From Nitrospirota bacterium (GTDB lineage: Bacteria > Nitrospirota > Thermodesulfovibrionia > Thermodesulfovibrionales > JdFR-88): a stretch of 64,000 nt of DNA. The notes below the pieces were generated by a model, which saw only the letters and a list, made by a program, of their open reading frames with translations, made no database searches and was not told the origin of the DNA. A program made the position numbers and the translations under genes. The stretch covers positions 62,771 through 126,770 of the forward strand of contig JAKAKS010000008.1 of assembly GCA_021813405.1 (NCBI GenBank). Direction: 5' to 3'. Shown here piece by piece: positions 3,151 to 61,073 of the stretch (within the stretch, counting starts at the first letter, position 1; the number at the start of each line of letters is the position of its first letter).

Positions 3151-3381
3151 CCGGTTAGCCGTTACCGCGGCATTTGCCGATATGCCTTTAAGCTCTCATC
3201 TTGGTTTTTTCTTTTTCCGAGGGCGGTGTTCGTCTGCGTTATGGCGCGGTCTTTTCCACCAGATCCACCGTGGTACCATGCGCGGCTCACATGAATACGG
3301 CAAACGGCCATCGCCGCTTGACTGCCGGCAGGTCCGCCGCGCCAATTCGCTCACAACCCGCCACGCTTTGCCCGGTACGTC
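3151..3381 (-). repeat. R1 interspersed structured element, copy A (candidate ncRNA)
   Basis: On the minus strand it contains GTGAGCGAA, CCGTATTCATGTGAGCCGCGC (3280-3300, identical to 58243-58263) and TAACGCAGACGAACACCGCCC (3221-3241), followed by TCGGAAAAAG. Only weak ORFs overlap it. Confidence 0.6.
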
Positions 3382-3566
3382 AAATGCAACATCAAAAAAT
3401 CTCTGTGAATAATTCGGGAGATGTCCCCAGATTATGCTGAGGCGCGCCCCTAACAGAGTCGAACACTGCCCCGCGAAAAAGTAAAACCCGGCTATTTTAA
3501 GATTCAGGTATATCGGCGAACGCCGCAAATAAACTTGCCCTATAGGAAACCAGCAGAGCCAAAAAT
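3325..3566 (+). repeat. R1 element, diverged copy F, head-to-head with and overlapping copy A
   Basis: GGTCCGCCGCGCCA (compare AGTCCGCCGCGCCA at 58161). TAACAGAGTCGAACACTGCC at 3451-3470, followed by CCGCGAAAAAGTAAAACCCGG (compare copy B). 3' ATATCGGCGAACGCCGC...CAGCAGAGCCAAAAA. Confidence 0.45.
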
Positions 3567-4128: not shown

Positions 4129-4154
4129 AGGGCGGGGTTCTCCCGCCCTTTTTA
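4129..4154 (+). terminator. Rho-independent terminator
   Basis: AGGGCGGGG-TTCT-CCCGCCCT followed by a T run, 40 nt after the stop at 4089. Confidence 0.75.
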
Positions 4155-4198
4155 CTTCACTTACGCCCCCCGGATTACACCCAACACCCCTCAATACC

Positions 4199-4570
4199 CA
4201 TGACACAAACTTAATGACATATGTCATATTGACGATGTCATGGCCTGCCGGGGTAAGATGGCGCTGGCAGAGGGGCTTGCCCGTTCCTGCTCTTTGAAAA
4301 AATGCCGTAAAATGACCGGCAAGCCGGAGAATAACCGCTAAAACGTTAATGTGACGCGGAGAGGTCCAAATCTCAAAAAAATCTCAAAAAATACGGCCAG
4401 TTACGTCTGGAACAGGCTTTTTGGGGCGAAAAATCAAAAACTTTTAAAATCGGGCAGTCAGGCGGAATTGACAACGGAAAAGATGGAACAAATGGAACAA
4501 AAATTTGGCCTTAAGCGGGCCGGAAATAAACGGAAATCCCGAAATTGCCGGAACATATAAAAAGAAAAGG
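4199..4570 (+). repeat. R2 element copy 1 (nested palindrome, GGA/GGAAC direct repeats, A-rich tail)
   Basis: CATGACACAAACT (4199-4211), TGGAACAAAAATTT (4493-4506) and GGAACATATAAAAAGAAAAGG (4550-4570) are each identical to blocks at 60618-60630, 60997-61010 and 61053-61073. Confidence 0.6.
4200..4243. promoter_or_regulatory. PAL motif: ATGACA-N8-ATGACATATGTCAT-N8-TGTCAT
   Basis: Central perfect 14-bp palindrome ATGACATATGTCAT at 4214-4227, with outer ATGACA/TGTCAT half-sites. Related sites at 16667, 30112 and 60611. Confidence 0.55.
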
Positions 4571-5395: not shown

Positions 5396-6217
5396 TTAAA
5401 AAGGCAGGGCGGTCTTTGAGGCCGACGGCCGGCAGATGCCCCGCTTAGAGCTCAATACAAATTCAACCAGGGTCTCTATCTCGGCGGAACGGGGCAGGTC
5501 CTCCCGGATTTTTTTGACCGCCTCCTTCAGCGTGTGCTTGCTCCTGAAGAGGATTTTGTAGGCCCTGGTAAGCTCGTTTATCGTCTCTCTGGAAAAGCCG
5601 TGCCTCCTTAGCCCCACAAGATTGAGGCCGTAGAGTTTTGCCCTGGGGCCTGAGGCCATTGTGTAAGGAGGTATGTCCTGCCCGATGCCGCTGAAACCGC
5701 CGGTCATCGAGTAAGAGCCTATGCGGGTAAACTGGTGCACGGCCACAACCCCGCCTATTATCGCATGGTCCTGCACCTCCACGTGCCCGCCAAGGGTGGC
5801 AGCGTTTGTGATGATCACATTGTTTCCTATTACGTTATCGTGCGCAACATGGGCGTAAGCCATGATGAAATTATTATCGCCAAGCACTGTCCGGCCGCCG
5901 CCGCCCACCGAGCCACGGTGAATGGACACATACTCGCGGATCACGTTATTGGCCCCAATTGTTACCCCGGTTCTTTCGCCCCTGTACTTCAGGTCCTGCG
6001 GGGGCAGCCCTATGCCCGCAAAGGGATGGATTACGCAGTTGGGGCCGATTACCGTATCGCCTTCCACTATTACGTTGTTTGCCAGCTTGCAGCCTGGCCC
6101 GATTTTAACGCCTTCCCCGATTATGCAGAAGGGGCCTATTGAGACGTTTTCTGAAATGGAGGCGGATTTATGCACTATCGCAGACGGATGCACCGATGTC
6201 TTTTGTTGTTTGGCCAT
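5396..6217 (-). CDS. lpxA: Acyl-ACP--UDP-N-acetylglucosamine O-acyltransferase
   Basis: 273 aa left-handed beta-helix hexapeptide repeats. Synteny after fabZ. Confidence 0.9.
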   Translation of the reverse strand: MAKQQKTSVHPSAIVHKSASISENVSIGPFCIIGEGVKIGPGCKLANNVIVEGDTVIGPNCVIHPFAGIGLPPQDLKYRGERTGVTIGANNVIREYVSIHRGSVGGGGRTVLGDNNFIMAYAHVAHDNVIGNNVIITNAATLGGHVEVQDHAIIGGVVAVHQFTRIGSYSMTGGFSGIGQDIPPYTMASGPRAKLYGLNLVGLRRHGFSRETINELTRAYKILFRSKHTLKEAVKKIREDLPRSAEIETLVEFVLSSKRGICRPSASKTALPF

Positions 6218-8290: not shown

Positions 8291-10663
8291 CTAAAAGAAC
8301 CCGCCGAACGTGAATTCGAACCGGTTTCTCTTCTCATCGTAATTTTTCCTTATGTTGTAGCCCCAGTCTATGCGGATGGGGCCTATGGGCGATATCCACC
8401 TGATGCCAACCCCCGTAGTATACCTGTAATCCCTGGGCAGCAGGGTGTCATACGCGCTTCCCGTGTCGAAGAACACTTCGCCCTTGAATTTAAAGGCGCT
8501 TACAAGCGGGAATATGTAATCCACATCGGCTATGGCCTCGTTCAGGCCGCCTATGGGCTCATCGTTAATATCGCGCGGGCCGCCCTCTCCATAGCCAAGC
8601 CCCATAACCGTGTAGATACCGCCCACGTAAAATCTCTCATATAGCGGCACGGCCTTGCCAAACAGTCCAGTGCTGTAACCCAGCGCCCCCGAGAGTGCAA
8701 GAGTGGTGTCGTCAGAAAGCGGGATGTACCAGGATGTGTCAAACTCGCTTTTTAAATAATCGTTGTCGCCGCCTATGCCAGCGAATGTCAGGTAGAAGCT
8801 GTTTTTAGAGCCTGTATGGGGATCCAGGTAGTTGTCCCTGGTGTCCCGCGCAATAGTGGGCGTTATGCTGCTTGTCAGCTTGGAGCCGGCCTGGTCCTGT
8901 ATCTGTGGGCTTGCGGTGCCAAGCACGCCGTAGATATTGTCGTTTTCCAGTTTGTAGTTTGCCCCGATCCACCAGTTTTCCCAGTAATTCTTGTTCAGGC
9001 CGAAGGTAAAGCCCGTCGCCTTGCTTGCATAATCCAGGTAGGTCCTGCTGGATTTGTAAATGGATGTGGACATCGCAAGCTTCTGGCCCAGGAACCACGG
9101 GTCCATATAGGTGAATTCATAATCGGAGGAGATGCTGCCCAGTTCCCCCTTCAGTTTTATCGCGCGCCCGGTGCCCCCGAGATTGGACTGGGTGATATCC
9201 ACCATGCCGATTATCTTGTCCACGGAGCTGTAACCGCCTCCTATGCTGAAGAAGCCGGTGCTCTTTTCCTTTACGTTTACATCAAGGTTCACCAGTTTTT
9301 TCTCCGGGATGGGTTCCGGCTGGATGGCCACGGAATCGAAGAAGTTAAGGTTGTTTATGTTCTGATAGCTTTTCTTGAGCTTTGCGCTGTTGAAAAGGTC
9401 CCCTTCGTTCAGGGTTATCTCGCGCCTTATAACGTGGTCCTTGGTCTTGGTGTTGCCGGAAATCTCTATCCTGCCCACATGGTACTGGTCCCCTTCATCC
9501 ACGGTGAAGCCTACGGAAACGGTCTTTGCGGCCGTATCCGGCGCCAGATTTGGGGAGATGCTGGCAAGGGCGTAGCCCTTCTCGGCGTATTTGTTGGTGA
9601 TGTCCACCACGTCTTCGCGCAAAAGCGCCCGTGACAGGGGTTTGCCTGTTTTTATCTTCAGTGACTTCTCTAGTTCCGGCGTGCTGAACACCTTATTGCC
9701 GGAGAAGCTTACTGAGGAGAGTCTGAACTGGTCCCCTTCGGAGATTGCGTATTTGACGTAAGCCCATTTCCTGTTTGGCGAGAAAGTGACGTCCGGGCCT
9801 GAAACGGATGCCTGGAGATACCCATTATTGAAGTAAACGTCCGCTATCTTTTCCGCGTCCGCCTGAAGGTCGTTCTTCTTGTAATAGCCGCCCTTTGTCA
9901 GGAAAGAGAAAAAGCCCCGTTCCGTGCTGGTCATGGCTTTTCTGAGTTTGCTGGAGGGTATATGCTTATTGCCCACGAATTCTATCTTCTTTATCATCGT
10001 CTTGGGGCCTTCTTTTATCATGAACACCAGGACGGCCTCGTAATCATTTAGCTTGTGGACAATGGGCACCACCTGGGCAAGCCCGAAGCCCTCGTCCTCA
10101 TATAGATGCCGCAGCTTTACAACGTTGTCATTGATAAGCACGGTGTCAGCAACGGCCCCGGTGGGCACCTTGATCTTGTCGGTGATTTTTGAGGTGCTGA
10201 GTTCCTTGTTGCCGTAGAACTGCACGTTTATAATGGAAGGCTTTTCCTTGACTATATAGATGAGCTTGATGCCGCCCTCAAATGGCTCGGCATCTACCTT
10301 AACGTCATCGAAGTACCCGGTTGCGAAGATGTTTTTTATGTCTTTTGTGACAGCCGAGGGAGACAGCGGAAGTCCCACGCCCTGGCTTATGTGCTTCCTG
10401 ACCGCGCCCGCTTCGATCTTCCGGAGCCCCTGTATCTCGATGGCTACAACATTAGGCTCGGCCTGTTTGGGCTGGCCTGAAGACTCGTCCGCCATCGCCA
10501 GGCCGGCCGCGGCAGGCGTTATTAGAACCAGCGCCGCAAATACCAGGCTTATCGCGGTAAGTAAAACTGCCGTACGTGCTGTTGCCGGATACCCGGCATT
10601 ATTCTTAGAGGGGGAGAACACTCCTAAGCGCCTTGCTGCCAACGTACCTCCAGGTTTTTTCAA
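8291..10663 (-). CDS. bamA: Outer membrane protein assembly factor BamA
   Basis: 790 aa. POTRA repeats followed by an Omp85 barrel ending ...NRFEFTFGGFF. Confidence 0.9.
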   Translation of the reverse strand: MKKPGGTLAARRLGVFSPSKNNAGYPATARTAVLLTAISLVFAALVLITPAAAGLAMADESSGQPKQAEPNVVAIEIQGLRKIEAGAVRKHISQGVGLPLSPSAVTKDIKNIFATGYFDDVKVDAEPFEGGIKLIYIVKEKPSIINVQFYGNKELSTSKITDKIKVPTGAVADTVLINDNVVKLRHLYEDEGFGLAQVVPIVHKLNDYEAVLVFMIKEGPKTMIKKIEFVGNKHIPSSKLRKAMTSTERGFFSFLTKGGYYKKNDLQADAEKIADVYFNNGYLQASVSGPDVTFSPNRKWAYVKYAISEGDQFRLSSVSFSGNKVFSTPELEKSLKIKTGKPLSRALLREDVVDITNKYAEKGYALASISPNLAPDTAAKTVSVGFTVDEGDQYHVGRIEISGNTKTKDHVIRREITLNEGDLFNSAKLKKSYQNINNLNFFDSVAIQPEPIPEKKLVNLDVNVKEKSTGFFSIGGGYSSVDKIIGMVDITQSNLGGTGRAIKLKGELGSISSDYEFTYMDPWFLGQKLAMSTSIYKSSRTYLDYASKATGFTFGLNKNYWENWWIGANYKLENDNIYGVLGTASPQIQDQAGSKLTSSITPTIARDTRDNYLDPHTGSKNSFYLTFAGIGGDNDYLKSEFDTSWYIPLSDDTTLALSGALGYSTGLFGKAVPLYERFYVGGIYTVMGLGYGEGGPRDINDEPIGGLNEAIADVDYIFPLVSAFKFKGEVFFDTGSAYDTLLPRDYRYTTGVGIRWISPIGPIRIDWGYNIRKNYDEKRNRFEFTFGGFF

Positions 10664-13292: not shown

Positions 13293-13480
13293 CCGGTTTG
13301 GCTATTCCGGAATTCCTGTGGGTGTATGGCGTGCTCCCAAAGGCTGTCACTCCAGAGCGAACAGCCGGATCCTGAGTCTTAGTGGCGGGTTTTACTTTTT
13401 CCGCGGGACGGTGTTCGTCTCCATTGGGGCCGCCGTCTTACGATTTTCTTTTGTTCAAATCATCGCTCATTTACCACCCG
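13293..13480 (-). repeat. R1 element copy B (candidate ncRNA)
   Basis: The minus strand reads GGGTGGTAAATGAGCGATGA...AATGGAGACGAACACCGTCCCGCGGAAAAAG...GCCTTTGGGAGCACGCCATACACCCACAGGAATTCCGGAATAGCCAAACCGG. The last module closely matches 17199-17246. Confidence 0.55.
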
Positions 13481-13569
13481 TTCCCCCCCCCGGGTAACGC
13501 AAACCAAACGGGCAGGGAACCCGGGAGAGTCAAATCCTGAAGCCCCTTTATTTAAAGGGCCCGGAAATG

Positions 13570-15110: not shown

Positions 15111-16568
15111 TTAAACGGCATTTGTGCGCCTGGTCTTAAACAGCATCCAAACCGTGCCCCACCACAGAAAAAGCGTGCTGAAAAGCACAAGCCCAAAATC
15201 CCGCAGATAGAAGAAAAAGCCTTTATCTATCGAGGTGAGCAGATGGCTTGCCGCAAGGAATATCAGCATTGCCTTCCAAGCAGGCGGCATATGCCCGTAT
15301 GAGTAGCGGTCCCATATCAGAAATACCATCAGCGTTGTAACCGGCAGCAGCATGGAGACGTAATGCGGATGGAACACAGGGCTGGCCACAAGCATAAGCG
15401 GCGTGAGTGATGCCAGCAGAAGCGTATCATGTATATTTTCATAGCTGTTGGGACTGCCTGGGAGCCGGAGTCCTTTGTGCCAACCAGCCGCTGCCAGGGC
15501 TGTTATAACCAGCAAAACCGCGATAATCCAGTGCGTGGCGCGCACCCAGGGCGCGGCAGTTGGCGGGCGCTGCTGCCGGGGCACCGAGGCGTACATGATA
15601 TTGTGCATTACCACCATGGGTGAGTTGCTGTCCGTACTGGTAATCCCCGTAAGCTCTCCGCCAACGGCGCTTTTTGTGCTTCCCTGCAATCCCCCCTTTA
15701 TTACCTCGGTGTAAAAAGAGTTGTAGGCCTTTACGGTCCGCGCTGGCCCCATGGCCGCAAGCGGTATGAGGCCAAGGGTCAAAATAAGCCCAACCGCAAT
15801 CCCGCCCAGCATGCGCCAGGAACGCCGCCAGACTGGCATCAGGATTAATAACGCCGGGATCAGCTTTATGGCAATCGCCGCAGACAGCCAGATGCCTGCA
15901 CGGAATTTTCTGCCGCGTACAATGTTTGCGGCAGTCACGCAAAGGATAAACGCAATCAGCAGGCCTGCCTGTCCGCGCATCTGGGAACGGCCTATTGCGG
16001 GCAAAAGCGCCAGAACAGGCACTATCCTTAGCGCCCACCAACGCCTGCTTGAAACAAGCGGCGGCCCGCTGGCCGTATACGGTATCTCTTCCAGCGCGCT
16101 GGCCAGGATGTGCACTCCCCAGAACCCCAGCGCCATTGTAAGCAAGTACCAGAACCCCACTGTAACCGCATACGGTACATAGCCAGCCCGGCTGGCCCCG
16201 GCAGGCGGGTCCGCCAGCGGCGTCATCAGCACGGCAAAAAAGGGCGGGTAGACGTAATGCCATCCCCTATCATCCGTGATGGAGTAAATATCGCCTTCAT
16301 TTCTGATGGCCCATGCAGCCCTGAGATAGGTACCCACATCGGTCTTGCGCGTGTGCTGGAGCGCGCCCCTCAGTTCCACCCAACCCCCAAAGAGGACAAC
16401 AAGCGCAACCAATGCCCAAAGCCATCCGCGCATGCGGCTTGAAAGCTGGGCTGCCCCCGGTTCTTCTTCAGGCTTGGGCGGTTCAATCTCAACGCGTACA
16501 GGGTGGGCCCTGGCGGATGCAGTGCCGGGCTCCGGGATTAAATCGGGTGTTTTTAATTCCTCAGGCAT
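15111..16568 (-). CDS. Polytopic membrane glycosyltransferase-like protein (DUF2029/GT87-like)
   Basis: 485 aa with many TM segments. WHYVYPPFFAVLMTPL loop typical of the DUF2029 family. Confidence 0.65.
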   Translation of the reverse strand: MPEELKTPDLIPEPGTASARAHPVRVEIEPPKPEEEPGAAQLSSRMRGWLWALVALVVLFGGWVELRGALQHTRKTDVGTYLRAAWAIRNEGDIYSITDDRGWHYVYPPFFAVLMTPLADPPAGASRAGYVPYAVTVGFWYLLTMALGFWGVHILASALEEIPYTASGPPLVSSRRWWALRIVPVLALLPAIGRSQMRGQAGLLIAFILCVTAANIVRGRKFRAGIWLSAAIAIKLIPALLILMPVWRRSWRMLGGIAVGLILTLGLIPLAAMGPARTVKAYNSFYTEVIKGGLQGSTKSAVGGELTGITSTDSNSPMVVMHNIMYASVPRQQRPPTAAPWVRATHWIIAVLLVITALAAAGWHKGLRLPGSPNSYENIHDTLLLASLTPLMLVASPVFHPHYVSMLLPVTTLMVFLIWDRYSYGHMPPAWKAMLIFLAASHLLTSIDKGFFFYLRDFGLVLFSTLFLWWGTVWMLFKTRRTNAV

Positions 16569-16666
16569 GTCTTATGTACTATGCATGTTTTAAGCGGGGC
16601 TTTTCAACTGTGGATATCCCCCGGATGTCCCGGAACGGATTTTTTAACTTTGTTAAAAATGCTGGC

Positions 16667-16705
16667 ATGAATTTCATGACATATGTCATATGGACAATGT
16701 CATGG
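16667..16705. promoter_or_regulatory. PAL motif copy 2
   Basis: ATGAAT-N3-ATGACATATGTCAT-N8-TGTCAT. About 100 bp upstream of the divergent 16568 start codon. Confidence 0.55.
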
Positions 16706-16906
16706 CAACCGGTGTTTCAATAGGGGCAGGGCGGTTTTGTTTTGCCGCCAGGATCTTTTAAAAGCCTGATACAAGACGGGATCGCCACGGCCAATATGGC
16801 CTTGCCATTACAAAGCAAAGATTGAACGGATTTGAACGGTGAAATACGTGAAATGTTTTAAAATCAAAGGCTTGCGGATTTCAGGTTGAACACTAAAAAA
16901 AAGGGG
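16667..16906 (+). repeat. R2 element copy 2 (PAL, ATTTGAACGG direct repeat, A-rich tail), immediately upstream of R1 copy C
   Basis: ATGACATATGTCAT at 16676-16689. ATTGAACGGATTTGAACGG at 16821-16839. TTGAACACTAAAAAAAAGGGGG at 16886-16906 (compare GGAACATATAAAAAGAAAAGG). Confidence 0.55.
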
Positions 16907-16966
16907 GTTCTTCAGGATTTCCTGTGGGTAAAACAACTGCTTTTGCAGGCCGTTTGGTTTGCCTTG

Positions 16967-17250
16967 CCCGGGGAAGCGGGCGGTTTCGCGGAGTGGGCTG
17001 TGCGTGCGTACGTCTGCAAGTGCCTGGCTAGCAATAGCTCCGGCGCGGGCAAATTCGGTGAGACTGGTAAAGACATGGCGGAATCTAACGCAGACGAACA
17101 CCGCCTGCGAAAAAATCAGAGAGCAGGCTGGCCATTGGCAAATGAGTCAGCAGTGGCGGAAGCGAAGCCGTTGGGGTCCGGCTTTCGCCGTGGTGAGCGC
17201 CTTTGAGAGCACGCCATATAACCACAGGAATCTCGGTAGAGCCAAAAAAA
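16967..17250 (+). repeat. R1 element copy C (candidate ncRNA)
   Basis: TAACGCAGACGAACACCGCC at 17086-17105. 3' module GCCTTTGAGAGCACGCCATATAACCACAGGAATCTCGGTAGAGCCAAAAAAA at 17199-17250. An upstream CGTCTGC (about 17010) is complementary to GCAGACG. Confidence 0.6.
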
Positions 17251-17262
17251 GGAGGCAGCCGG

Positions 17263-25280: not shown

Positions 25281-25471
25281 TTTATTCCACCGAGAAAAAA
25301 TTTAATAAGACTATCATTGCATGGTCATTTGCGCCAGTCCCCATTTGGGGCATGGGAATCTAAATAAAATCATAATTTCAGATTGGTGATAGAATATGGC
25401 TGTAAGGGATAATTGCTCAGTTTTTTTAATTGGCCTGACTGGCCGTTGTCCTTGTGTGTGCAGGTGAGGAA

Positions 25472-25993
25472 ATGGACCGCACAATTGATGCAAGGATAAA
25501 AGATGCGATTGAAGCTTTTGAAAAGCTTCAAAAGAAATCACCTTTTATTTTTATCCACGATGGCGATTACTGGCTAAACCCTCACGCCAGGAAGCTTATC
25601 CACCGCAAGGCCATACCTGTTGACGATTTCATTGCATGGCTCAAGATAGGCGTTGCCCACCTGAAGAAATTCTCATATGATGATTTGACTATAAATATGG
25701 CGCAATTGCCGGGGGGTGCCGTTTTGGTTTTTTTGCAGCAGGAGGATAAAGGGGCCGGCGCCTGCCCCAGGGTGGATCTCACTATTAAGGAAAGGGAAGT
25801 GCTACGCCTTGTTATACGAGGGTTTTCCAACAAGAAGATTGCCGAATCTATGAGGATAAGCCCGCAAACTGTAAATGCCCACCTGGACCATGTGTACCAG
25901 AAGCTTGGCTGCTCAAACAGGGCGGCGGCCGTTACAATTGGGTTGAAGAACGGCCTTTTCCTTCCCCGGCGCGGTGAAAATAAACATTCCTGA
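25472..25993 (+). CDS. LuxR-family transcriptional regulator with an uncharacterised N-terminal domain
   Basis: C-terminal HTH LTIKEREVLRLVIRGFSNKKIAESMRISPQTVNAHLDHVYQKLG. ATG 25472 lies behind GGTGAGGA (the ORF-track start at 25454 is also possible). Confidence 0.75.
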   Translation: MDRTIDARIKDAIEAFEKLQKKSPFIFIHDGDYWLNPHARKLIHRKAIPVDDFIAWLKIGVAHLKKFSYDDLTINMAQLPGGAVLVFLQQEDKGAGACPRVDLTIKEREVLRLVIRGFSNKKIAESMRISPQTVNAHLDHVYQKLGCSNRAAAVTIGLKNGLFLPRRGENKHS

Positions 25994-30006: not shown

Positions 30007-30111
30007 CAATAGGCACGGGCGTCAATAAGAAGGTCTAAATTTCACTTTCAGGATACCTCGACCAACGCGCGTAATTTCAGGTGCATCAAACATTAGCGGT
30101 CCGCCGTAAAC

Positions 30112-30139
30112 ATGACATGAAAATCATGGCATATGTAAT
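30112..30139. promoter_or_regulatory. PAL motif copy 3 (degenerate)
   Basis: ATGACA-N8-ATGGCATATGTAAT. Confidence 0.4.
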
Positions 30140-30154
30140 ATAAAAAGAAAGGGG
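30112..30154 (+). repeat. Miniature/degenerate R2 element (PAL fused directly to the A-rich tail)
   Basis: ATGACATGAAAATCATGGCATATGTAATATAAAAAGAAAGGGG. It ends 14 nt from the stop of the convergent methyltransferase gene. Confidence 0.45.
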
Positions 30155-30167
30155 ATGGGCCTGCCAA

Positions 30168-41016: not shown

Positions 41017-41803
41017 GTTTTTTATTTTCGCTTTCGCATTTCTCTTCCTTGCAGCAGCTCCGATTGTTGCCGCAGGTGACACATCCGGTCCATCATCTTC
41101 TCAATCCGCGCAACAGACCGTTCTTCCCGCAAACCCTTCCGATTACGTTATGGACCTTGCGGGGATAATAGATGCGAACACAGCCTCGCGCATAGACGCG
41201 CTGTTAAAGGAGCTTGAGGAAAAGACCGGCGCGCAGGTTGTGGTCCTCACCGTCCCAAGCCTTAATGGGCAGGACATTGAGCAATTCTCGGTTGATACCG
41301 GCCAGAAATGGGGGCTTGGACAAAAGGGCAAGGATAACGGTTTCCTTTTTGTTGTGGCCCCAAATGAAAGAAAATACTGGTTTTCAACCGGGTACGGGCT
41401 TGAAGGCACTCTTCCGGACAGCTATCTTGGCACCCTTGGCAGACAGGTTTTGGTGCCCGCATTCAAGGCCGGCCAGTATTCGCAAGGCATAGAACAGGCC
41501 GTTGGAGTGGTCGCGCAGCGGATAGCAAGCCGGAAGGGCATAACCCTTACAGGCGTGCCGCAGCCTCAGCAGATGGAGCGCCAAAGGGCCTCTTTTGTCC
41601 CGCTCATATTCGGGGGCCTGTTCTTTCTGCTTATCATTATATCGGCATTCAGGGGCGGCCTGCCCCTCATCCTTTACCCGTTGCTCTTCGGAGGCGGCGG
41701 ATGGGGCGGAGGCGGCGGGTTTGGCGGCGGTTTCGGGGGCGGAGGCTTTGGCGGAGGCGGCGGAGGCAGTTTTGGCGGAGGCGGAGCGGGCGGAAGCTGG
41801 TAA
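41000..41803 (+). CDS. TPM-domain protein (YgcG-like) with TM and poly-Gly tail
   Basis: 267 aa. Signal peptide, TPM pattern (AQVVVLTVPSL...GFLFVVAPNERKYWFSTGYGLEG), C-terminal GGGGWGGGGGFGGG... Confidence 0.85.
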   Translation: MRLKSRFFIFAFAFLFLAAAPIVAAGDTSGPSSSQSAQQTVLPANPSDYVMDLAGIIDANTASRIDALLKELEEKTGAQVVVLTVPSLNGQDIEQFSVDTGQKWGLGQKGKDNGFLFVVAPNERKYWFSTGYGLEGTLPDSYLGTLGRQVLVPAFKAGQYSQGIEQAVGVVAQRIASRKGITLTGVPQPQQMERQRASFVPLIFGGLFFLLIIISAFRGGLPLILYPLLFGGGGWGGGGGFGGGFGGGGFGGGGGGSFGGGGAGGSW

Positions 41804-58154: not shown

Positions 58155-58410
58155 CCCGGAAGTCCGCCGCGCCAGGTAAGGCGGGGTGGGTAGTGAGCGA
58201 AGTGGCCGGGCGAGCCATTTCTGACCAGTGGCGCGGCGTTGGCCGTATTCATGTGAGCCGCGCGGCGCAGTTCTTAATTTATTGAAGCGAGACTAGGCCC
58301 TGTAACGCAGACGAACCCCGCCCCTCGGAAAAAAGGAAAAACTCAAATGAGAGGGCCAGGCGTACCGGCGAATGCCGCCGGAAAACGGAACAAGAAGGGC
58401 CCCGGACCGG
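58155..58410 (+). repeat. R1 element copy D (candidate ncRNA; best reference copy)
   Basis: AGTCCGCCGCGCC (58161-58173) is complementary to GGCGCGGCG (58230-58238). GTGAGCGAA. CCGTATTCATGTGAGCCGCGC (58243-58263). TAACGCAGACGAACCCCGCC (58303-58322) followed by CCTCGGAAAAAAGG. Confidence 0.6.
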
Positions 58411-60301: not shown

Positions 60302-60610
60302 GCGGCTTCCGCAAATGAGATGAGGTTTGTTGTAAACCTGTTAGCGCAAGGAACTGATTTAAAAAAACATAAAATACGCAACAGTACCTGATTCCTCTAC
60401 TTTTTGGCTCTATATTTGTACCAGTTATATCCACCAAATTTCAAGCGTTTTTTCAAGTTGGTCCGCTTAACTCACTAATTATTCATTCTTTCCATTAATT
60501 CCGGTGACACAAATCAGCGTTTGTTTGAAGGGAAGTAAACGGCTCAGGCGGAATGGGCATGAGTCCCGGTTTTCCTGTGTACTCAACACTCCTTGGCCTG
60601 TATCCCTTCC

Positions 60611-60668
60611 GGCAAAGCATGACACAAACTTTATGATATATGTCATATGGACTATGTCATGCTTTGCC
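60611..60668. promoter_or_regulatory. PAL motif copy 4, with 14-nt outer inverted arms
   Basis: GGCAAAGCATGACA-N8-ATGATATATGTCAT-N8-TGTCATGCTTTGCC. Confidence 0.55.
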
Positions 60669-61073
60669 GTGTTATGATCGCGGGTGGCGGGAACCCACCC
60701 CGGCCCTGCGCCCACCCCTCCGAAGAGGGTGGTTGCCAAAGGCCCTTTAAAAAAGACATCTGCCGGAATAGGTGATAACGCAAATGCCAAATTAGATTCC
60801 CGGTTAAAACGATCGGCAATGGCGGAGAAAAGATTTTTAAAGGCAGGGGTTTACAAACGTAAAAGGCTTGAAAAAACAGGAGGTTAGGTTTGTTCCAATT
60901 TTTTAGTTATGTTGCAGGCTGGAAGTTGAAATCATTAAAAAACGGGCACTTAGGGGTGGGGCTTCACTGCGAAAAGTATGGAACAGATGGAACAAGTGGA
61001 ACAAAAATTTAGGCCCAAGTTATTGAAAATAAAACGAAATACCAAAAAAGCTGGAACATATAAAAAGAAAAGG
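60611..61073 (+). repeat. R2 element copy 3 (extended palindrome, GGAAC triple repeat, A-rich tail)
   Basis: GGCAAAGCATGACA...TGTCATGCTTTGCC. ATGGAACAGATGGAACAAGTGGAACAAAAATTT at 60978-61010. GGAACATATAAAAAGAAAAGG at 61053-61073. Confidence 0.6.

Follow-up and report, generated by a model that had tools for sequence, protein, structure and literature searches.

The window, a stretch of 64,000 nucleotides from a Nitrospirota bacterium, carries a nested palindrome, called PAL here, at positions 4199-4242 (copy A), 16661-16704 (copy B) and 60618-60661 (copy D), and a shortened copy C at 30111-30139. A sequence-only reading had reported a conserved palindrome at four loci, and all four were indeed present. 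With up to three mismatches allowed, the full nested pattern ATGACA-N8-ATGACATATGTCAT-N8-TGTCAT matched three times in the window, compared with 0.00 matches expected from 100 shuffles (no mismatch at 4200-4241, two at 16662-16703 and one at 60619-60660). The 14-mer ATGACATATGTCAT alone gave seven matches at the same tolerance versus 1.16 expected, and for a profile HMM of the PAL module the same four sites were all the matches in the 64-kb window. PAL is real and non-random.

Anatomy of PAL

Four heptamers of the form (C/T)ATGACA make up PAL in a 7-7-7-2-7-7-7 arrangement (CATGACA-7-CATGACA-TA-TGTCATA-7-TGTCATG). The inner pair constitutes a 7-2-7 inverted repeat, and this pair, CATGACA-TA-TGTCATA, was found in every full copy. 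Left spacer (yrAAnTTn) and right spacer (ATnGACnA) are each conserved and not complementary to one another, which makes PAL directional. The right spacer always contained T(G/T/A)GAC(A/G/T), reminiscent of a -35 element (TnGACn). A hexamer followed 19 nt past this element and 12 nt after TGTCATG, at a distance that was fixed in 18 copies. It exhibited the -10-like variants TATGAT, TAAGAT, TATTCT, TATTGT, TATCCT, TAAGCT and TAATAA, in which T1, A2 and T6 are the sole near-invariant positions and A5 is likewise well conserved. The pattern T-A-n-n-n-T was retained in about 16 of 19 copies and across species; a poor -10 was found in three copies, namely B, L019 and L011. Conservation of the central 20 nt among paralogues is partly by construction since they were the query that retrieved the copies of a sister MAG; heptamers H1 and H4, both spacers and the -10 were not covered by this query. 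The elements in the window are as follows; promoter-like elements and start sites are predictions.

4199-4242, + strand: PAL of copy A (CATGACA, 7 nt, aATGACA-TA-TGTCATa, 7 nt, TGTCATG); 0 mismatches, conserved in ortholog L006
4229-4234 and 4254-4259, + strand: promoter-like elements of copy A, TTGACG (in the right spacer), 19 nt, TAAGAT; predicted start ~4266
16661-16704, + strand: PAL of copy B, outer left heptamer degenerate (GCTGGCA); conserved in ortholog L019
16691-16696 and 16716-16721, + strand: -35-like TGGACA and degenerate -10 position TTCAAT of copy B
30111-30158, + strand: truncated copy C, left half of PAL CATGACATGAAAATCATGGCATATGT fused to right end AATATAAAAAGAAAGGGG
60611-60668, + strand: PAL of copy D, core 60618-60661 plus a 7-nt extension of each outer arm
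60648-60653 and 60673-60678, + strand: promoter-like elements of copy D, TGGACT, 19 nt, TATGAT; predicted start ~60685

The perfect 14-nt outer arms described for copy D were confirmed at 60611-60624 and 60655-60668. This extension is peculiar to copy D and absent in the other approximately 18 copies. The 13/13 identity of the 5' flank CATGACACAAACT between 4199 and 60618 was confirmed as well. The core of copy D carries one C-to-T change in the inner left heptamer, and the copy D sequence was identical in five further assemblies of the same species. The outer half-sites had been placed one helical turn away, but their start-to-start distance is 14 bp, which corresponds to about 1.3 turns. From the proposed dimer-of-dimers operator we can thus retain a multimeric regulator, reasonably suggested by four half-sites, but not the helical-turn geometry.

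A sigma-70 promoter scan made no call at the PAL copies, where the spacer between -35-like and -10-like elements is 19 nt, outside the usual 16-18 nt. Because of this over-long spacer and the silent scan, a promoter at PAL would be weak or factor-dependent.

No compensated change was found in any of the 12 pairs of the nested hairpin over 19 copies, and 16 cells were broken. The putative transcript of copy A was not more stable than shuffled sequences (z = 0.12). In Rfam, a tRNA-Gln was the sole match in the window at the gathering threshold, and nothing meaningful was found across copies A and D with E values up to 10. Given the lack of compensated pairs, the non-complementary spacers, the unstable transcript and the empty Rfam result, PAL is more likely recognised as duplex DNA; the DNA rather than RNA function favored by the sequence-only reading is the better fit. 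An RNA or single-stranded DNA hairpin, acting as minus-strand terminator or as REP-like structural element, would be in line with the fold of copy D DNA (z = -7.97) and with a CAAAAAC just 5' of PAL in about 60% of the copies, equivalent to GTTTTTG after the hairpin on the minus strand. We nevertheless hold it to be very unlikely: substitutions broke the pairing in the absence of compensation, the A+T-rich stem would be interrupted by an 8x8 internal loop made of the conserved non-complementary spacers, the loop closing the central stem would measure only 0-4 nt, and none of the Rfam families matched. A REP/REPIN-type repeat was rejected on the grounds of the uncompensated changes, and an intrinsic terminator on those of the A+T-rich stem, the internal loop and a minus-strand T run present in just that 60% of copies.

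The longer repeat and its distribution

PAL is the best-conserved part, 44 nt long, of a directional, modular, non-coding repeat of 200-480 bp without a conserved ORF. At least 20 loci of this repeat were found in the window's species and the sister MAG, and alignment of the flanks showed copies A and D to be homologous over about 380-460 bp. Its architecture starts with a weak 'up module' of about 50 nt, followed by PAL, n4-GCCGGGT-TATGAT-GG and a GC-rich stretch of 25-130 nt. Then come a box (T)GCTCTTTGAAAA, an optional 100-250 nt and two to three direct repeats GAT(G/T)GAAC with a period of 9-10. An A+T-rich stretch leads to the end T(G/T)GAACAyaTAAAAA(A/G)AAA, after which a copy-specific GC hairpin is found. 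The copies fall into two subfamilies, TGGAAC and TTGAAC. The 3' module (T(G/T)GAAC repeat / TAAAAAAAA) never occurred without PAL in the sequences examined. In the window, the repeat comprises the following parts in addition to PAL:

4150-4198, + strand: up module of copy A, consensus tTCAGGTGCAtCAaACAcc, GC-rich stretch, CCCtCAAAAACC; weakly conserved, left boundary approximate
4289-4300, + strand: box GCTCTTTGAAAA of copy A, 3' of the GC-rich stretch of variable length; homologous to P-L-E-N codons of a four-cysteine ORF (see below)
4405-4425, + strand: terminator-like hairpin GTCTGGAACAGGC of copy A, then TTTTTGG; a transcript would end at ~160 nt
4482-4570, + strand: 3' module of copy A, direct repeats GATGGAACAAATGGAACAA (4482-4500) and right end GGAACATATAAAAAGAAAAGG (4550-4570)
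16752-16904, + strand: rest of copy B (TTGAAC subfamily), starting with box GATCTTTTAAAA (16752-16763)
16822-16904, + strand: 3' part of copy B, direct repeats TTGAACGGATTTGAAC (16822-16837), cTTTTAAAATCA, right end TTGAACACTAAAAAAAAGG (16886-16904)
~60574-60617, + strand: up module of copy D
60742-61073, + strand: rest of copy D, starting with box GCCCTTTAAAAA (60742-60753)
60977-61073, + strand: 3' part of copy D, three direct repeats TGGAACA (60977-61004), right end GGAACATATAAAAAGAAAAGG (61053-61073)

Immediately next to the 3' module of copy A comes the stop codon (4586) of LpxI, a convergent gene. In the sister-MAG ortholog L006 the terminator-like hairpin reads GCTTGGAACAAGC, with one compensated pair; from some copies of the repeat it is missing. 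The site at 30112 had been described as a degenerate copy. It is instead truncated: relative to the intact ortholog in the sister MAG (L003), an internal 386-bp deletion has joined the PAL core (CATATGT) directly to the right end (ATATAAAAAG). This deletion falls between short repeats ACATAT and is the sole allelic difference among the loci compared.

Several other functions of the repeat were considered and rejected. Small ORFs could not be maintained as an explanation: reading frames within the TGGAAC repeats and 3' of the box vary from copy to copy, and the TTGAAC subfamily contains stops. Sigma-54 and ECF or sigma-28 promoters were dismissed by eye since TGGAAC/GGAAC and GCCG..TTAT misfit the consensus spacings. 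As for a CsrA sponge, GGA motifs are just about two-fold enriched and are lost in the TTGAAC subfamily.

The search for the motif beyond the window, suggested by the sequence-only reading, covered one genome per species. The 20-nt core had 16 exact matches in the sister MAG, 'Nitrospirae bacterium DBS2-1.bin64', each on a separate contig and often near contig ends, and seven matches in other organisms, each without the outer heptamers. The MAG orthologs of copies A, B and C were 92-97% identical to them. Other assemblies of the window's species (99.7-100% identical) revealed a fifth copy 6 kb past the window; the spacing of the copies is about 15 kb, and four of the five share the same orientation over about 70 kb. 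The next relatives of this Thermodesulfovibrionales-like Nitrospirota host display only about 70% PurA identity. PAL was not found in their syntenic 20-kb regions, which left no space for copies A or B, and we therefore regard the PAL family as a lineage-specific expansion and not as a set of ancient gene-specific operators. Two PAL patterns had no match in viral contigs, a 531-bp copy of the repeat was unmatched in GenBank phages and PLSDB plasmids, and PAL was absent from 16 related Mu-like viral contigs (IMG/VR) found via their portal protein. In the literature searched, neither the exact 14-mer nor the combination of 'Nitrospirae' with 'MITE' gave a result.

Matches in metagenomes were mostly unrelated tandem arrays of the 7-mer ATGTCAT. 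Such ATGTCAT/ATGACAT arrays, with an orientation that sometimes switches, were seen in unrelated organisms (L024, L027, L033, L036, L037 and L048). In L025 and L044, ATGACATATGTCAT-N6-ATATGTCAT lies just 5' of a ribosome-binding site. A more A+T-rich relative of PAL, TTGACATgatttaATGACATATGTCATAAAGACAATGTCAT, stands at a contig end in L034 and L038 (Ga0116194 / Ga0208462), which hints at the presence of the motif in at least one further lineage.

The gene context bears on the first interpretation given to these sites, as independent operators through which a local regulator would control the genes flanking each of them. Four half-sites and an intergenic location are what would be expected of such operators. 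Copies A and C, however, lie between convergent genes, the flanking genes share neither function nor orientation, and the same long repeat surrounds every site. A listing of the downstream genes, which had likewise been suggested, brought up no common function, and the downstream gene was co-oriented in only about half of all copies. We thus consider local operators extremely unlikely. What stands of the idea of a regulator-binding site is the operator as the most likely reading of PAL, but not the free-standing operators of local genes.

Synteny is interrupted at two of the copies. Compared with L049, L051 and L052, a gene for a 485-aa membrane protein, copy B and a second repeat are inserted in the window (15111-16568 with 16569-17262), and the insertion with copy B separates ComF-like and PHP genes that are adjacent in other genera. 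At copy C, synteny with the sister MAG (L003) breaks about 26 nt upstream, at window position 30086; to the left of the break, the two genomes have different genes and different up modules, which suggests recombination between PAL elements.

The second repeat, about 350 bp long with the core TAACGCAGACGAACACCGCC, is unrelated to PAL. It was found in the window at 16913-17262, 3197-3551, 13297-13511 (inverted) and 58237-58339, and elsewhere in L013 (2755-2850) and L023 (1045-1158), three times beside or inside PAL elements. The copy at 16913-17262 is missing from the MAG ortholog L019 and has the direct repeat GGGGGTTCTT on both flanks; it thus looks like a recent MITE-type insertion. A further run of repeats of the type GGCGG(A/C)GG, 9-21 nt long, at 41687-41802 is probably a glycine-rich coding repeat.

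The PAL repeat itself is small, non-coding and dispersed (200-480 bp, at least 20 loci), as a MITE would be. Terminal inverted repeats were not found: the left end TCAGGTGCA... and the right end ...TTGAACAcTAAAAAAAA are alike only directly, if at all, and the similarity between the up module and the right end is likewise a direct one. By eye, no target-site duplication was seen, and the three orthologous loci compared were all occupied. The sequence-only reading had named a purely structural repeat end, such as a terminal inverted repeat, as the finding that would speak against a regulatory site. All copies are indeed embedded in a longer repeat, but PAL is internal to it, about 50-60 nt from its left boundary.

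These observations have to be weighed for the hypothesis that a transposase or recombinase recognises PAL in moving the repeat, with the promoter-like features being incidental. The family is multi-copy, lineage-specific and intergenic. Its two subfamilies differ in all T(G/T)GAAC sites together, as transposase-site specificities do, synteny breaks at copies (other genera lack the insertion that holds B, and the sequence 5' of C is unlike L003), and the same species harbours a bona fide Mu-like prophage that has a Mor gene. The internal position of PAL does not agree with this hypothesis, and neither terminal inverted repeats nor a target-site duplication were found; against it also stands that the three loci comparable between two genomes are all occupied, with an internal microhomology deletion as the sole difference. 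It also leaves the T-A-n-n-n-T pattern unexplained, as well as the 48/48 footprint before the operon described below. Overall, a mobility site appears unlikely to us.

A Mu-like cluster behind the same putative control module

The same 5' module, composed of up module, PAL, -10 and a leader with the CCTCTTGAAAA box, was found directly 5' of a Mu-like gene cluster in L021 from the sister MAG, L077 from the window's species, L075 from a species further removed and the metagenome contig L041/L078. In L021, L041/L077 and L075, about 245 nt separate the module from the start of an endolysin gene downstream, with which a co-directional operon of about 13 kb begins. The cluster encodes an M15 endolysin, TerL, Portal_Mu, a head protease, a scaffold, the major head protein, an adaptor, Mu Gp36/Gp37-like proteins and a tail tube, and it was followed over 1-9607 in L077, 82-12889 in L041, 1-5897 in L075 and 5719-8000 in L021. 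On the opposite side, about 130 bp off and divergent, a protein of 168-175 aa with a GerE/LuxR HTH is encoded, and host genes for cytochrome b, Rieske and NrfD proteins adjoin this regulator gene. The whole arrangement is syntenic between L075 and L077, with genes 75-82% identical and regulators 65% identical. Since synteny is kept despite this divergence, the cluster is long-resident and probably domesticated. We regard it as a candidate for a Nitrospirota cluster of the domesticated-phage or gene-transfer-agent-like type. A sample of the same species (L080 and L081) also contains a Mu-like prophage distinct from this cluster; it has a tape-measure gene, a Mor-family gene and a gene for a 740-aa Mu portal, and no PAL.

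Phylogenetic footprinting of this locus showed 48 of 48 consecutive nt over PAL and both spacers to be invariant between L075 and L077, whereas the surroundings have diverged. The -10 changed from TATCCT to TAAGCT between these two sequences, with T-A-n-n-n-T kept. Exactly 6 nt after the -10 hexamer, a GTG start opens an ORF of 65-68 aa with four conserved cysteines (C-x7-C...C-x2-C), which overlaps the start of the endolysin gene. It was located at

L077, ~9607-9805, - strand: four-cysteine ORF
L021, 5525-5722: four-cysteine ORF
L075, ~5897-6104, - strand: four-cysteine ORF

Pfam and PHROG contained no match to it. Nine synonymous versus 15 non-synonymous substitutions, with codon position 2 the least changed, weakly favour the view that the ORF is coding, and a leaderless mRNA starting with this GTG would be possible.

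An alternative function should be considered here, that of a DNA site for a phage-like particle (a pac-like packaging start) or for a chromosome-organising protein. It is appealing in that PAL sits at the host-proximal edge of the head/tail cluster, is made up of several short repeats and recurs about every 15 kb, with 4/5 copies in one orientation over ~70 kb. A promoter is indicated instead by the -10 pattern and by the ORF whose start coincides with the predicted +1, no terminase small subunit was identified, and about 400 bp of other conserved sequence per dispersed copy would be superfluous for such a site. We consequently give this function very little probability.

Concerning the regulator, its C-terminal domain matched the DNA-binding domains of NarL, VraR, GerE, ComA and others, and its N-terminal region of about 100 aa is uncharacterised, with neither a receiver nor an autoinducer domain. 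Adjacency to PAL was observed at one locus and is conserved in three genomes; no such gene stands beside any of the orphan copies, as we call those away from the cluster. From this gene context, the LuxR-type protein beside the cluster is probably the binder of PAL. The LuxR-type gene of the window had been among the regulators put forward by the sequence-only reading, and this lead pointed to the right family: the window protein (25454-25993) is a 32%-identical paralogue of the phage-locus regulator that adjoins PAL in the three genomes. The window gene itself belongs to another orthologous group, which stands beside a response-regulator gene and has no PAL nearby. Neither was PAL found in the neighbourhood of more distant LuxR paralogues. 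Upstream of these distant paralogues, a different conserved palindrome, CCTGTCC-N4-GGACAGG, is present (L085 ~5850-5880; L088 ~1490-1520); by gene context, it is a possible operator of the paralogue group that includes the window gene at 25454-25993.

The orphan copies align with the leader of the phage-like locus through PAL, the -10 region and the box. Their sequence CTCTTTGAAAA(A/T)GACG corresponds to the P-L-E-N-D codons of the small ORF, although no orphan retains the ORF, and between the -10 region and the box the orphans are shortened or rearranged with respect to the phage-locus leader. Because of this homology in leader and box, the orphans can be described as degenerate copies of the control region with ORF remnants, joined to the 3' module.

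Proposed origin and comparison with known systems

Taken together, the data are best explained by a composite reading, to which we assign a probability of about one in two: PAL would be an operator lying over a promoter, and the core of a mosaic repeat that goes back to a domesticated Mu-like cluster and its switch region. We have more confidence in the operator and promoter part of this reading than in the regulator's identity or in where the orphans come from. PAL would act as a double-stranded DNA operator overlapping a promoter that fires rightward. In the predicted geometry, the centre of the palindrome falls at about -45.5 and the heptamers extend from about -66 to -24. With a tetramer or two dimers bound on both sides of the -35, repression would be expected; alternatively, the suboptimal 19-nt spacer might allow activation. 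The ancestral module would be the control region of the vertically inherited Mu-like cluster, with the divergent LuxR/GerE gene in the position of a phage switch. In the lineage of the window, this control module and remnants of the small ORF would have been joined to the 3' module with its T(G/T)GAAC repeats and A-rich end. The combined element would then have reached at least 20 intergenic sites in the form of a non-coding mosaic repeat, the four copies in the window being orphans. Binding of the regulator to these orphans is probably retained, and short non-coding or read-through transcripts may start from them. The absence of PAL from related Mu-like viral contigs counts against this reading, as PAL is not general in that phage group. 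A more far-reaching option, which we judge quite unlikely, is that the orphans form a functional network in which one phage-derived LuxR-type switch governs, at the same time, the particle cluster and dozens of intergenic promoters or non-coding transcripts of the host, or that they serve as pac-like marks of the chromosome about 15 kb apart.

If the composite reading is true, PAL offers an operator together with candidates for its regulator and regulon, in an uncultivated Thermodesulfovibrionales-like Nitrospirota lineage for which transcription factor sites have so far not been described. It would also represent a bacterial case of a regulatory module of a phage cluster copied round the genome on a repeat. 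Eukaryotic transposons are well known to copy regulatory modules in this way; from bacteria, few cases have been documented. Under the network or particle reading, an amplified phage operator-promoter would wire the host genome to a gene-transfer-agent-like system. For annotation, PAL palindromes should be taken as repeat cores and not as gene-specific operators; their repeat nature explains why contigs of the sister MAG break there.

Inverted heptamers in a 7-2-7 arrangement are the geometry used by NarL/FixJ/LuxR (GerE-domain) dimers. The inner pair of PAL resembles NarL/NarP 7-2-7 sites, the lux box and the RcsB box in consisting of inverted heptamers 2 bp apart, and NarL-regulated promoters have extra single heptamers nearby, as PAL does. 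In line with these systems, a GerE-domain gene adjoins the putative ancestral PAL copy, and its domain matches the structures of NarL, VraR and GerE by sequence. The PAL heptamer sequence is new, however, in that the exact 14-mer was absent from the papers searched, and the candidate regulator lacks receiver and autoinducer domains.

Temperate-phage control regions combine a divergent regulator gene, multiple operators and a lytic or late promoter, as in lambda OR and the Mu operators, and late promoters of the Mu C / mom type have a 19-bp spacer. The PAL locus shares the divergent regulator and operon, the multi-site operator over the -35, the suboptimal 19-nt spacer and an operon that starts with lysis genes followed by Mu-type head genes. 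It differs in that the regulator is of the GerE type and not of the CI, Cro, Mor or C type. Furthermore, host genes lie right beside the switch and synteny holds across species, so that the locus looks domesticated, and related Mu-like phages are without PAL. Gene-transfer-agent clusters are known to be under LuxR-type control, such as that by GtaR in Rhodobacter. As with GtaR and RcGTA, a LuxR-family regulator is found here with a domesticated head-tail cluster, in the present case known from the genes alone; for RcGTA, we know of no dispersed copies of the operator.

As a repeat, the PAL element is comparable to Correia/NEMIS elements of Neisseria, to ERIC and to the pneumococcal BOX, being likewise small, non-coding, multi-copy, modular and lineage-specific, with subfamilies, length variants and both promoter-like and terminator-like signals. 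Correia elements have terminal inverted repeats and a target duplication, neither of which was seen for the PAL repeat. Unlike Correia, ERIC and BOX elements, the PAL repeat is strongly directional, and its 5' half appears to stem from the control region of a phage cluster, including remnants of an ORF.
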